The position numbers and the translations under genes are program-made. From Escherichia phage MN04, in sequence record MT129654.1: DNA of 64,000 bases, one strand, 5' to 3'. The notes below the pieces were generated by a model, which did no database searches, was not told the DNA's origin, and worked only from the letters and a program-made list of their open reading frames with translations. This document shows, in pieces, positions 34,877 to 39,909 of the stretch (the stretch's first letter is position 1; each line of letters begins with the position of its first letter).

Positions 34877-35467
34877 ATGAACGGTTTATTTAACCAAACT
34901 AACACTACCAACTTTATCTTAGAGGTTAGTGACTCAGGAATGACGCAGTCATTCAAATTGAACGTACAAGATGTAACACTACCAGGTATCCATATTCCGG
35001 TCTCAGACGTCCCAGGATCGACCCAAGGTATAAACCGTGCTAAACTGCCAGGTTCTACTGTAGAATTCGACCCTTTGATTGTGAACTTTCTTGTAGACCG
35101 CGAATTGAAATCATGGCTGGACGTTTATAAATGGATGCTATCATTAAACAACTATGTAACACATGAATCCGAAGCCTGGCATCCTAAAGGTCAGCCTGAG
35201 GCTATCACCCTCCACATCCTTGATAACAACAAACAGAAAATCGTAATGAGCATTCATTACTACGGTGGTTGGCCATCAGACCTTTCCGAGATTCAGTACT
35301 CTTATAAAGAAGATTCCGACCCTGCGATAATCGCTACAGCAACATTCAACTTCAAATCGTTTGCTGTAGAAATAGATGGTACAATAGTTACAGGTCGTCC
35401 ACAAATTGATTCGTATGCCGAACAACGTGTGGCTCGTATGTCTATGCATCCATCTATGAGAAAATAA
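34877..35467 (+). CDS. gp3: Tail tube terminator / tail completion gp3
   Basis: ATG 34877 with AGGA RBS; track ORF 34739 is a run-on through the gp2 overlap. Confidence 0.65.
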   Translation: MNGLFNQTNTTNFILEVSDSGMTQSFKLNVQDVTLPGIHIPVSDVPGSTQGINRAKLPGSTVEFDPLIVNFLVDRELKSWLDVYKWMLSLNNYVTHESEAWHPKGQPEAITLHILDNNKQKIVMSIHYYGGWPSDLSEIQYSYKEDSDPAIIATATFNFKSFAVEIDGTIVTGRPQIDSYAEQRVARMSMHPSMRK

Positions 35468-36220
35468 TGAAACTAATATCAATTGTAGGAATCAAACGTA
35501 GCGGTAAGGATACCGTTGCTAACTATGTAATTGAGAATATGGATTCCGTAAAATTCCAACTCGCTGGTCCTATTAAAAAGTATCTGGCTGAAGCTTATGA
35601 ATACATATCTGATGACCCTGTATTCGACCGTAGCTATATGCCTAAACTTGATTTTAACTGTTTTGAAGGTATCGGTTACGACCGTGAAGAAATCCTTCCT
35701 TTAAAACCATATGATGTGGTTGATATTTTTGAACATGCTATTGTTAAACTGAATAATATCCTTCCTATTCCAGGAATTGATGTTCTTACCGCATATCATT
35801 ATGGTCTTACCCCGGTCCAGTATCTGTCTGAAGAAACAAAAGACCAGCTATTTGAAGTAATAAATAAAAATAACAATTGGTCAGTACGTCGTCTCATGCA
35901 GACCCTTGGGACTGATATTATTGTTAACCAATTTGATAAGATGTATTGGGTTAAGTTGTTCGCTTTAGACTATTTTGATAAAATATACTCTGATGCGAAA
36001 TACTATGTCGTACCTGATGTTCGTCAAACACATGAAATTGATTCGCTCAGAGCGATGGGTGCTACGATTATTCATGTAGTTCGCGCTGAAACCGGTCAAG
36101 TACAAGACTCGCACATCACTGAAGCGGGTCTACCAATTTTACCTGGTGACGTTGTTGTTGAAAATAACGGCACTCTTTCTGAACTATACACCACTATTGA
36201 TAAATTATTAGGAAATAAAA

Positions 36221-36228
<8 letters not shown>
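35467..36228 (+). CDS. gp1: Deoxynucleoside monophosphate kinase gp1
   Basis: 253 aa; P-loop 'GIKRSGKDT'; 'SVRRLMQTLGTDIIVNQFDKMYWVKLFALDY' matches T4 gp1. Confidence 0.85.
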
Positions 36229-38922: not shown

Positions 38923-39051
38923 GAATTATGTGATATTATTACTCTATCATTAATACCCTCTATTACCAAAGGTTCTTCCCTCAAAGAGCCTTTCATAATA
39001 GACAAGGTCTATTAATCAAACTTACTTTACTTAATTTTATTTGAGGTGTTT

Positions 39052-39318
39052 ATGTTAGTATTAAAATTAGCTTTTTATGACCCAGAAACCAAGACAACAA
39101 CTACTAAACGTTGTTCTATTTCATATGAATGCCAATTTGGCGAAGTTGAGACCGACGGCGAGCCCTTTATGGCAATTGCCGATAGCACATTCGCTAAACC
39201 AAAAATAATTCCACTAGTTAACGCTGCGGCTTATCTGGTTGCTCCTGAAGAAATGACTTATCATACAATTCAGCACATGGCTAAAGACGATAATGCTCCT
39301 GCTGGATTTGTAATTTAA
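39052..39318 (+). CDS. Hypothetical protein
   Basis: ATG 39052 with GAGGTG RBS (track start 39046 is GTG); ends 5 nt before first tRNA. Confidence 0.45.
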   Translation: MLVLKLAFYDPETKTTTTKRCSISYECQFGEVETDGEPFMAIADSTFAKPKIIPLVNAAAYLVAPEEMTYHTIQHMAKDDNAPAGFVI

Positions 39319-39323
39319 ATTAA

Positions 39324-39397
39324 GGCCCTGTAGCTGGACGGTCAAGCGAGCGACTCATAATCGCTGGATGGTGGTTCGATTCCACCCAGGGCCACCA
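39324..39397 (+). tRNA. tRNA-Met (anticodon CAU; could be Ile2 if lysidine-modified)
   Basis: Perfect 7-bp acceptor stem, anticodon stem AGCGA/TCGCT with loop CTCATAA, T-arm GGTGG-TTCGATT-CCACC, encoded CCA. Confidence 0.8.
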
Positions 39398-39401
39398 ATT
39401 T

Positions 39402-39476
39402 GGATGTGTAGCTCAGTGGTAGAGCAGTTGACTGTTAATCAATTGGTCCATGGTTCGAATCCATGCATGTCCGCCA
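39402..39476 (+). tRNA. tRNA-Asn (anticodon GUU)
   Basis: Cloverleaf: D-arm GCTC/GAGC, anticodon loop CTGTTAA, T-arm CATGG-TTCGAAT-CCATG, acceptor with two G-U pairs, CCA. Confidence 0.75.
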
Positions 39477-39480
39477 AATA

Positions 39481-39556
39481 CGAGGCATAGCTCAGAAGGA
39501 AGAGCAACGGTCTTCTAAACCGTAGGTCGTAGGTTCGATCCCTACTGTCTCGACCA
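39481..39556 (+). tRNA. tRNA-Arg (anticodon UCU)
   Basis: Cloverleaf: D-arm GCTC/GAGC, anticodon stem ACGGT/ACCGT loop CTTCTAA, T-arm GTAGG-TTCGATC-CCTAC, CCA. Confidence 0.85.
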
Positions 39557-39840
39557 AACAAGAAACCGGGTCGCTACCGGTAAGCCGTCGGACTGATGTT
39601 CCCTGAGTAAGGACTGACATTAACAAATCTTTACGATCTGTTAACGTCCCCTTACATCACAGCAGAAACGGCGCACCGAATTATCGATTCGAGGAAATAT
39701 CTTTGCCGTAAGCCGAGTAGCGTTTTTGACGGAACGTTCGGATATGGTCGAGATATGGCCTTTTAAAAATATTGAGTAGCGTCAACTACTTAATAACCGG
39801 GTTCGAATCCTGGCGTTTCGTACAAACACTTGCCTAGCAG
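39557..39840 (+). ncRNA. Candidate small stable RNA(s) or degenerate tRNA-like element after the tRNA cluster
   Basis: No ORF; tRNA-like T-arm (CCGGG-TTCGAAT-CCTGG) and 7-bp acceptor pairing 39730-36 with 39814-20; internal repeats CGGTAAGCCG and GAGTAGCG. Confidence 0.3.
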
Positions 39841-39872
39841 GTGGAACCCCGACAAGGTTACCCTAGGTTAAA

Positions 39873-39909
39873 GGCCCTTCCGAAAGGTTGGGCCTTTTTT
39901 GTATAAATA
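39873..39909 (+). repeat. Terminator hairpin plus late promoter cassette, copy 1
   Basis: GGCCCTTCCGAAAGGTTGGGCC, T-run, then GTATAAATA; near-identical copy at 40496. Confidence 0.7.

Follow-up and report, generated by a model that had tools for sequence, protein, structure and literature searches.

Orthologues of the T4 small stable RNA genes rnaD and rnaC in Escherichia phage MN04, and a predicted tRNA-like fold for rnaC

The rnaD/rnaC locus of phage MN04

Phage T4 makes two small stable RNAs, species 1 and species 2, which have been known since the 1970s. Here we describe their counterparts, the genes rnaC and rnaD, in Escherichia phage MN04 (MT129654.1), where they follow the transfer RNA (tRNA) genes; all coordinates are positions in the whole stretch of DNA that we analyzed, a window of 64,000 nucleotides (nt), and the features are collected in Table 1. 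Three tRNA genes, which score 62-73 bits with the Rfam tRNA model, are the upstream members of the transcription unit to which rnaD and rnaC belong. An earlier examination of the letters alone, here called the sequence-only reading, had picked out a structured non-coding stretch at 39557-39840 and had suggested for it a counterpart of the T4 RNAs, a degenerate tRNA or a tRNA-derived decoy. The first of these suggestions is borne out by a base-for-base alignment with T4 rnaD and rnaC, in the same order and on the same strand, and the roughly 280 nt that had been taken for one element resolve into two separate RNAs.

Table 1. Features of the tRNA/rnaD/rnaC unit of phage MN04.
Feature	Position	Strand	Description or basis
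tRNA-Met(CAU)	39324-39397	+	ARAGORN; Rfam tRNA model
tRNA-Asn(GUU)	39402-39476	+	ARAGORN; Rfam tRNA model
tRNA-Arg(UCU)	39481-39556	+	ARAGORN; Rfam tRNA model
rnaD	39558-39677	+	orthologue of T4 species 2 RNA, 120 nt; alignment to T4 and GiZh
Spacer GAAUUA	39678-39683	+	single-stranded leader before rnaC
rnaC	39684-39822	+	orthologue of T4 species 1 RNA, 139 nt; alignment to T4 and GiZh
rnaC acceptor stem, 5' strand CGAUUCG	39685-39691	+	pairs with CGUUUCG 39814-39820
rnaC long arm	39692-39761	+	minimum free energy fold, RNAalifold
Long-arm helices P2, P3, P4	P2 39692-94/39759-61; P3 39697-703/39750-56; P4 39705-10/39743-48	+	
Long-arm helices P5, P6	P5 39713-16/39738-41; P6 39720-25/39732-37	+	3-nt bulge GUA before P6
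Apical loop of long arm, UUGACG	39726-39731	+	exact complement of hairpin-2 loop CGUCAA 39780-85
rnaC hairpin 2	39770-39795	+	10-bp stem 39770-79/39786-95, loop CGUCAA 39780-85
rnaC T arm CCGGG-UUCGAAU-CCUGG	39797-39813	+	abuts acceptor 3' strand, as in tRNA
Acceptor 3' strand CGUUUCG, then U-ACA-AAC	39814-39827	+	strand 39814-20; T4 annotation puts mature end at 39822
Trailer hairpin CACUUGC-CUA-GCAGGUG	39827-39843	+	directly 3' of rnaC; fold -8.7 kcal/mol
Intrinsic terminator of the tRNA/rnaD/rnaC unit	39870-39901	+	GC-rich stem, GAAA loop, then U6; -17.8 kcal/mol

The coordinates of both RNA genes were carried over from a three-way alignment of MN04 with T4 (NC_000866) and phage GiZh. The T4 gene order is tRNA-Arg, rnaD (71053-71171), rnaC (70908-71046), and MN04 has rnaD and rnaC after tRNA-Arg in the same order and on the same strand; in GiZh the matching DNA carries the annotation 'rnaC, small stable RNA; species 1 RNA', with a terminator after it. 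T4 rnaC (also called 'band C') lies, like its MN04 orthologue, on the tRNA strand after rnaD and before the operon terminator, has the same predicted fold and is set apart from it by only two substitutions (137/139 nt identical, 98.6%), one of which makes a G-C pair of the T stem into G-U. MN04 rnaC scores 159 bits with a covariance model of the family that we built. rnaD is 85.1% identical to T4 and 95% identical to GiZh over 120 nt; in T4 as in MN04 it adjoins tRNA-Arg, and its 5' hairpin and the 5' and 3' blocks of its long hairpin are kept, whereas the apical third of the long hairpin differs. By comparison, tRNA-Arg is only 44.7% identical to T4, the trailer 85% and the terminator 73%, and rnaC is therefore by far the most constrained piece of the region. 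The gap between 98.6% for rnaC and 44.7% for tRNA-Arg, together with helices that are kept by compensatory changes across more than 10 genera, speaks against the suggestion of a degenerate tRNA.

The features by which membership of the T4 rnaC family could be tested, namely full-length homology, gene position and the shared fold, were found in MN04, as were the sequence homology and the position expected of rnaD. Our best explanation of the region, to which we give a probability of about 90%, is that it holds two non-coding RNA genes orthologous to T4 rnaD and rnaC, the latter with a predicted tRNA-like four-way fold. In T4, one transcript of ~1.75 kb is the precursor of eight tRNAs and of species I and II, and ends after species I (PMC2330249). 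T4 RNAC and RNAD accumulate during infection as stable RNAs, RNAC as a species of ~139-140 nt, and the probe of the published RNAC Northern blot starts at TCGATTCGAGG, exactly the rnaC 5' end mapped here (PMC9697503).

The pair is an already known, ordinary feature of a T-even phage. When 39557-39900 was compared by blastn with 50,697 phage records, 798 records matched, nearly all of them T-even-type phages of Escherichia, Shigella, Yersinia and Salmonella. Phage KIT01, whose record is classed as Dhakavirus, matched most closely (99.1%), and the deoxynucleoside monophosphate kinase encoded at 35467-36228 is 100% identical to its counterpart in phage JS98. These two matches identify the source of the window as a T-even phage of the JS98/KIT01 type. 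As such the element belongs to textbook T4 biology, and its presence in a JS98-like phage is to be expected.

As the sequence-only reading had it, 39557-39840 contains no open reading frame (ORF) of substance. Automatic coding sequences labeled 'hypothetical protein' have been placed over the region in other phages, such as Marfa (gp277) and several that infect Shigella or Escherichia, and would agree with one or more very small proteins. However, only mechanical ORFs of 20-44 amino acids occur on the two strands, substitutions in the family track base-pairing and not codons, and in T4 both the curated annotation and Northern data identify the product as an RNA (PMC9697503), all of which makes a coding function extremely improbable.

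Predicted fold of rnaC and its conservation across T4-like phages

Homologues of rnaC, gathered by blastn, by pattern scans of viral and metagenome contigs and with the covariance model built here, occur in Tequatrovirus, Dhakavirus, Gaprivervirus (VR7), Karamvirus, Moonvirus, Kanagawavirus (PEi20, Kosakonia 305), Gelderlandvirus (Melville) and Marfavirus, and also in EcS1 and Citrobacter phage Ursula, two phages whose genus was not established here. Those of Jiaodavirus (JD18; 138 records) were found by the covariance model. In all, the phage database contains ~950 homologues. The gene is invariably on the strand of the tRNAs, flanked by tRNAs on both sides or placed after the last tRNA of the cluster: it fills the gap between tRNA-Trp and tRNA-Gly in Karamvirus and Gelderlandvirus, and in JD18 it comes 5 nt after tRNA-Pro. 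No rnaD was found near rnaC in Karamvirus, Gelderlandvirus or Jiaodavirus JD18. A specific rnaC pattern had zero copies among 185,579 bacterial and archaeal genomes, and the covariance model found nothing above the tRNA background in the tRNA regions of a Bragavirus, an Acinetobacter Hadassahvirus and an Aeromonas Tulanevirus. Among the matches listed from a metagenome scan with a loose pattern were a few new near-identical variants and, in addition, GC-rich chance matches. rnaC is a phage-restricted RNA family of the tRNA clusters of many T4-like genera.

The minimum free energy (MFE) fold of MN04 rnaC (-48 kcal/mol; z = -4.34; 0/200 shuffles equally stable) pairs residues 2-8 with 131-137, in rnaC numbering, and includes a long arm at 9-78 and a hairpin at 87-112. 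The same fold is the MFE structure of nearly every rnaC homologue. We defined the fold of the family in this analysis by an acceptor stem, a long arm, hairpin 2, a T arm and two complementary loops, and the resulting model is a four-way, tRNA-like junction of a terminal acceptor stem, an irregular arm of ~26 base pairs (bp), a 10-bp hairpin and a T arm. In a structure-blind MAFFT alignment of 20 distinct rnaC sequences, 97.9% of cells were paired, versus 88.4% after column shuffles and 33-46% when partners were slid, and 16 pairs had changed on both sides. A second alignment of 23 distinct sequences from more than 10 T4-like genera that includes JD18, model-fitted to the nested helices, gave 22 pairs with double changes, and 0/500 shuffles reached the observed value by any measure.

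The acceptor stem is made of five Watson-Crick pairs around two U.U mismatches, and 99-100% of its cells are paired. Compensation takes the form of an A-U/G-C exchange (9 versus 14 sequences) and of a C-G pair that becomes U-A in JD18, where the stem is fully Watson-Crick, both U.U having become U-A and A-U. The two U.U mismatches are invariant in 22/23 sequences although neighboring pairs covary, Jiaodavirus alone having Watson-Crick pairs there; this invariance suggests that the mismatches are a specific recognition feature. The sequence-only reading had instead paired the acceptor 3' strand (CGTTTCG, 39814-20) with CGGAACG at 39730-36, as the closing helix of a tRNA-like 3' module of 91 nt. 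Seven pairs are indeed possible, but the helix is not a conserved acceptor stem: 82.9% of cells are paired, there is no compensatory change, and one pair is open in 11/20 sequences. This pairing may form transiently in T4-type sequences. Because the partner at 39730-36 is not conserved, we take the tRNA-like unit to be the entire rnaC, closed by its own ends, and not a 3' module.

Within the long arm, an unpaired GG at 39757-58 is invariant, and double changes occur at 3/3 pairs of P2 and 4/4 pairs of P6. The arm exists in two unrelated sequence versions, type A in T4 and Karamvirus and type B in KMB17, PEi20, Melville and Marfa. Both types form an extended hairpin with a bulge of 3-4 nt just under the apical stem, and RNAalifold found compensatory changes at 10/25 pairs in type B and at 1/26 in type A. 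Compensatory changes affect every stem pair of hairpin 2 (10/10). The T arm is paired in 99% of cells and shows six standard pair types at its middle pair. The arm, which the sequence-only reading had noted as T-arm-like, is real, and its loop core GGTTCGAWYCC occurs four times in 64 kb, in the three tRNAs and in rnaC, versus 0.12 expected by chance.

The kissing helix between the apical loop of the long arm and the loop of hairpin 2 can form all six pairs in 23/23 sequences. Its loops are invariant in most genera and changed jointly to UUGGCG/CGCCAA in Marfavirus and to UUGCAG/CUGCAA in Jiaodavirus; A-U, G-C and C-G are found at one position of the helix and C-G and A-U at its neighbor. Since the two loop-bearing stems covary independently (4/4 and 10/10 pairs), we read the arrangement as two kissing hairpins and not as one long-range helix. 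In the MFE fold of KMB17 the hairpins merge into a 19-bp long-range helix; we rejected such a single extended duplex because the stem of hairpin 2 also covaries where the extension is impossible, for example in id4496.

Closure of the loops within one molecule is geometrically plausible in the model, where the long arm up to its 3-nt bulge counts ~20 bp and P6, the kissing helix and hairpin 2 together count ~22 bp. The loops could instead pair between molecules and give defined rnaC multimers such as rings or cages. Such assembly would suit perfectly complementary, covarying loops that sit on arms of very different length, the covariation fits pairing in cis and in trans equally well, and ROOL, GOLLD and short manA RNAs assemble via intermolecular kissing loops (PMC12286853; bioRxiv 10.64898/2026.07.01.735769). 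ROOL, GOLLD and the manA motif are, like rnaC, phage-associated structured RNAs with covarying loop-loop complementarity, but rnaC matches them neither in sequence nor by Rfam model and is smaller than ROOL and GOLLD, which makes this an analogy only. With helix counts of ~20 and ~22 bp that would allow one molecule to close on itself, we think multimers rather improbable.

In its overall plan the predicted fold resembles a canonical tRNA with a long extra arm (class II; RF00005). Both have a 7-bp stem between their two ends that continues into a 5-bp T stem with the loop UUCGAAU, the same order of four arms around one junction and a location in a tRNA operon, and the encoded 3' end of rnaC parallels discriminator plus CCA. 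In MN04 the T arm, at 39797-39813, is of the tRNA type (5-bp stem, GTTCRANNC-type loop), and the 7-bp acceptor stem contiguous with it carries the two U.U mismatches. Unlike a tRNA, rnaC has no normal D arm, in place of which a 3-bp stem carries an insertion of ~64 nt; it has no 7-nt anticodon loop; and most members have a tandem U.U in the acceptor stem and ACA in place of CCA. The absence of a canonical anticodon arm, noted in the sequence-only reading, holds: hairpin 2 is capped by a 6-nt loop that takes part in the loop-loop pairing.

The 3' end of rnaC forms a direct repeat with the 3' end of tRNA-Arg (GTCTCGACCAAACA versus GTTTCGTACAAACA), which reads GTCTCGA-CCA-AACA in tRNA-Arg and GTTTCGT-ACA-AACA in rnaC. 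The copies in Marfavirus and Jiaodavirus read U-CCA-A at this place, and those of MN04 and most genera have U-ACA. From its letters, the end of rnaC thus appears to mirror that of a tRNA, with discriminator, CCA and trailer, the first C of CCA being A in most genera. The T4 annotation ends rnaC two nt into the U-ACA motif. With no anticodon loop and with U-ACA in place of NCCA, rnaC is probably not a decoding tRNA.

Scans with ARAGORN and Rfam found tRNAs only at 39324-39556 and none in 39557-39840; across 39557-39900, ARAGORN and RF00005 made no call even at E<=10, and Rfam 15 contains no model for rnaC or rnaD. In homologues of rnaC, ARAGORN does call tRNAs of 94-96 nt (L003:646-740, L005:646-741, L006:646-741 and L016:980-1073, equivalent to MN04 39730-39822), whose identity varies by phage between tRNA-Met, tRNA-Phe and a suppressor tRNA-Stop(tta), and the GenBank records of Enterobacter phages id4496 and PG7 give 'tRNA-Met' at rnaC. 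Such calls would favor a tRNA gene in decay (or a pseudogene), or else a genuine tRNA with an unusual shape. However, the anticodon called differs among close relatives, MN04 and several homologues receive no call, the acceptor pairing that the calls require is not conserved, and no Rfam tRNA match exists. Moreover, rnaC is far better conserved than the real neighboring tRNA, and its 6-nt hairpin-2 loop is taken up by covarying loop-loop pairing. We regard both readings as very unlikely; the calls look like systematic annotation artifacts that inflate phage tRNA counts. As no Rfam family exists, rnaC and rnaD are routinely left unannotated, entered as 'hypothetical protein' or given a false call of tRNA-Met, tRNA-Phe or suppressor tRNA.

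Mimicry of the acceptor/T-arm half is how the tRNA-like domain of transfer-messenger RNA (tmRNA), YrlA and the tRNA-like structures of plant viruses borrow factors that process or bind tRNAs. rnaC has no tag reading frame, and neither ARAGORN nor Rfam called a tmRNA here; a weak 'tmRNA_permuted' match (12 bits) covers only the real tRNAs and not 39557-39840. Similarly, YrlA (RF02553) has no match in 39557-39840 and only a weak one over the real tRNAs (28.6 bits versus a threshold of 69), and rnaC differs from YrlA and Y RNA-like molecules in having no Ro-binding stem.

Processing and possible roles of rnaC

A minihelix consisting of a 12-bp acceptor/T-arm stack behind a single-stranded leader is a minimal RNase P substrate, and rnaC has both the minihelix and the single-stranded leader. 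The leader, of the form (A/G)AAUUA, is kept even where a tRNA and not rnaD precedes rnaC. Species 1 RNA was reportedly sequenced by Paddock and Abelson in the 1970s, and the Apirion laboratory is said to have found that its precursor is an RNase P substrate, behavior which the 12-bp stack and leader would explain. We propose that, with this minihelix and leader, rnaC would be cut by RNase P at its 5' end and would be acted on by the tRNA 3'-end enzymes at the other. rnaC would then be excised by tRNA maturation enzymes and stabilized by its closed structure, and would not decode. Processing of the minihelix by tRNA enzymes would in turn account for the stability of rnaC and for its placement anywhere in a tRNA cluster.

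A role confined to the precursor would need no further function. On this account, rnaC and rnaD act only in cis, as structured spacers that organize the processing of the tRNA precursor and shield its 3' end from exonucleases, with no role once released. Both are part of the tRNA precursor and adjoin the terminator in T4-type phages (PMC2330249), and the apical domain of rnaD is freely swapped, as might be expected of a spacer. However, the rnaC genes of Karamvirus, Gelderlandvirus and Jiaodavirus lie in the middle of the cluster, without rnaD and away from the terminator, invariant single-stranded nucleotides and covarying loops across genera exceed the needs of a spacer, and late in infection a stable form of the RNA builds up (PMC9697503). 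We consider a function in cis only to be unlikely.

The roles of T4 RNAC and RNAD are unknown some fifty years on (PMC3014915, PMC9697503). We tentatively suggest that rnaC could work in trans by rigidly mimicking a tRNA, and could thereby bind or titrate a factor that recognizes the acceptor/T-arm end of tRNAs. A specific version of this step, which we hold to be possible but somewhat more doubtful, is an anti-defense decoy, in which a host enzyme that senses, cuts or modifies the acceptor ends or elbows of tRNAs would be sequestered by the minihelix with its U-ACA or U-CCA end, and the real tRNAs would be spared. Its tRNA-like top half, canonical T loop and tRNA-mirroring 3' end would fit a decoy, as would the encoding of U-CCA in two lineages, strong purifying selection compared with the adjacent tRNA and the confinement of rnaC to lytic phages. 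When a T4-like phage was evolved experimentally, the one mutation common to all ECOR34-adapted lines lay in rnaD, and the virulence index on ECOR34 rose from 0.17 to 0.98 along with this single-nucleotide polymorphism (SNP) (PMC12685909). Such a host-specific adaptive SNP in the gene next to rnaC is in line with a decoy (PMC12685909), but it lies in rnaD and not in rnaC. Furthermore, no target is known, stoichiometric action would need tRNA-like abundance, and the covarying body of long arm and kissing loops would be superfluous for a simple acceptor-end decoy.

A more elaborate form of the tRNA-mimic proposal is offered here only as speculation, and we think it unlikely. rnaC would be a purpose-built tRNA mimic, in which a CCA-like minihelix is joined to a body locked or multimerized by the 6-bp loop-loop pairing, and would serve as a sponge or inhibitor of a host factor that targets tRNA ends (for example an anti-phage system that modifies or cleaves tRNAs) or as a self-assembling scaffold. 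rnaD might share in the same host-specific function, as hinted by its convergent mutation on ECOR34.

Several points weigh against our interpretation of MN04 rnaC as a processed tRNA mimic with kissing hairpins. The expression evidence comes from T4, and the MN04 RNAs are known here from sequence. The covariation of the kissing helix derives from only two independent lineages (three pair changes) and does not separate pairing within a molecule from pairing between molecules. The 23-sequence alignment was fitted to the model; the kissing columns lie outside that model, and the independent MAFFT alignment of 20 sequences agrees with it. The mature 3' end is uncertain, as the T4 annotation stops at ...GUA and the adjoining ACA or CCA may or may not be kept or built anew. 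For the RNase P step we rely on T4 work reported in the 1970s-80s from the Abelson and Apirion laboratories, and no binding partner emerges from the analysis. Finally, T4 mutants that lack the whole tRNA region grow on laboratory strains, and any function would therefore be conditional.

The comparative model, with its acceptor stem, four-way architecture, kissing loops and CCA/ACA tail, supplies testable mutations for the old question of function and would support a proper covariance model for annotation. In a literature search that was limited for older work, we found no paper on the processing or structure of species 1 RNA. Nor did we find a description of the acceptor stem, the kissing loops, the two long-arm versions or the ACA/CCA tail; the older work was thinly covered, and we claim no priority.

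rnaD and neighboring elements

rnaD is a structured RNA separate from rnaC. In its predicted fold it begins with a single-stranded leader and hairpin 1, ACCGG-GUCGCUA-CCGGU (39565-39581), and continues in a long irregular hairpin closed by 39584-39590 with 39668-39676, so that its 3' end is base-paired (MFE -36.1 kcal/mol; z = -2.95). RNAalifold on 13 rnaD variants from closely related genera gave 34 pairs, 9 of them compensatory. These variants, from Tequatrovirus, Dhakavirus and Gaprivervirus, share the 5' hairpin (5 bp, loop GUCGCUA, one A-U/G-C exchange) and the flanks of the long hairpin that pair the 3' end (GYCGUCG with CGGCGCAC). The apical third is variable, with unrelated sequence there in some phages. 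In L101, L010 and L150, which are of Tequatrovirus type, the apical ~50 nt (~39606-39655) are an unrelated hairpin-forming sequence between nearly identical flanks, a replacement that looks like a cassette-like swap inside a non-coding RNA. rnaD was seen only in the T4/JS98/VR7 group and is not tRNA-like.

Of the repeated blocks listed in the sequence-only reading, GAGTAGCG(T) is an exact repeat, at 39715 and 39774, whereas CGGTAAGCCG occurs only once, at 39578. The supposed second copy reads CCGTAAGCCG, and only the 8-mer GTAAGCCG is common to the two places (39580, 39708). This match is specific to MN04: T4 and most relatives have GTAAGTCG in rnaD. Repeated 8-mers number 4 in the 284 nt versus 0.56 in shuffles (p about 0.02), and carry little weight because they are neither collinear nor conserved across the family. 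A duplication relating rnaD to rnaC was rejected, as the common 8-mers AACCGGGT and GTAAGCCG are not collinear, one is MN04-specific, and local alignment adds nothing; the shared 8-mers are unexplained or due to chance. A 9-nt complementarity between the 3' end of tRNA-Arg (UCUCGACCA, 39548-56) and the long arm of rnaC (UGGUCGAGA, 39745-53) was likewise set aside, as it is not conserved in T4 and is expected ~0.26 times by chance.

Other structured sequences lie in the tRNA clusters of related phages, and neither the gap between tRNA-Gln and tRNA-His in Karamvirus and Gelderlandvirus nor the spacer between tRNA-Met and rnaC in Marfavirus shows similarity to rnaD. The Gln-His gap holds a conserved element of ~95 nt (L005:249-344, L006:249-344, L167:~355-451) closed by a 14-bp helix, AUCAAUAUUUACU.../...AGUAAAUAUUGAU, and this element could represent a further unannotated small RNA encoded among the tRNAs. 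The 67-nt spacer between tRNA-Met and rnaC of Klebsiella phage Marfa (L169:2434-2500) forms a stable hairpin (-21 kcal/mol, z = -2.7), the 3' strand of which, GGCCCACCCC, sits where the 3' end of T4-type rnaD, GGCGCACC, lies. Two Tequatrovirus-like sequences, L016 (~1246-1605) and L017, have ~360 nt extra between tRNA-Arg and rnaD, which are adjacent in MN04 and T4.

Downstream of rnaC, the trailer hairpin is kept in the alignment with T4 and GiZh and is likely a 3'-processing or stability element. The terminator has an inverted repeat at 39870-77/39890-97 and was overlooked by a simple terminator scan because of internal mismatches; in phage GiZh a terminator is annotated at the homologous site. 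Upstream of rnaD and rnaC, MN04 has three tRNAs, versus eight in T4 and ten in GiZh, and the annotation of the near-identical phage KIT01 gives only two (Met, Arg). An ORF of 90 amino acids (39046-39318) lies directly upstream of the MN04 tRNA genes.

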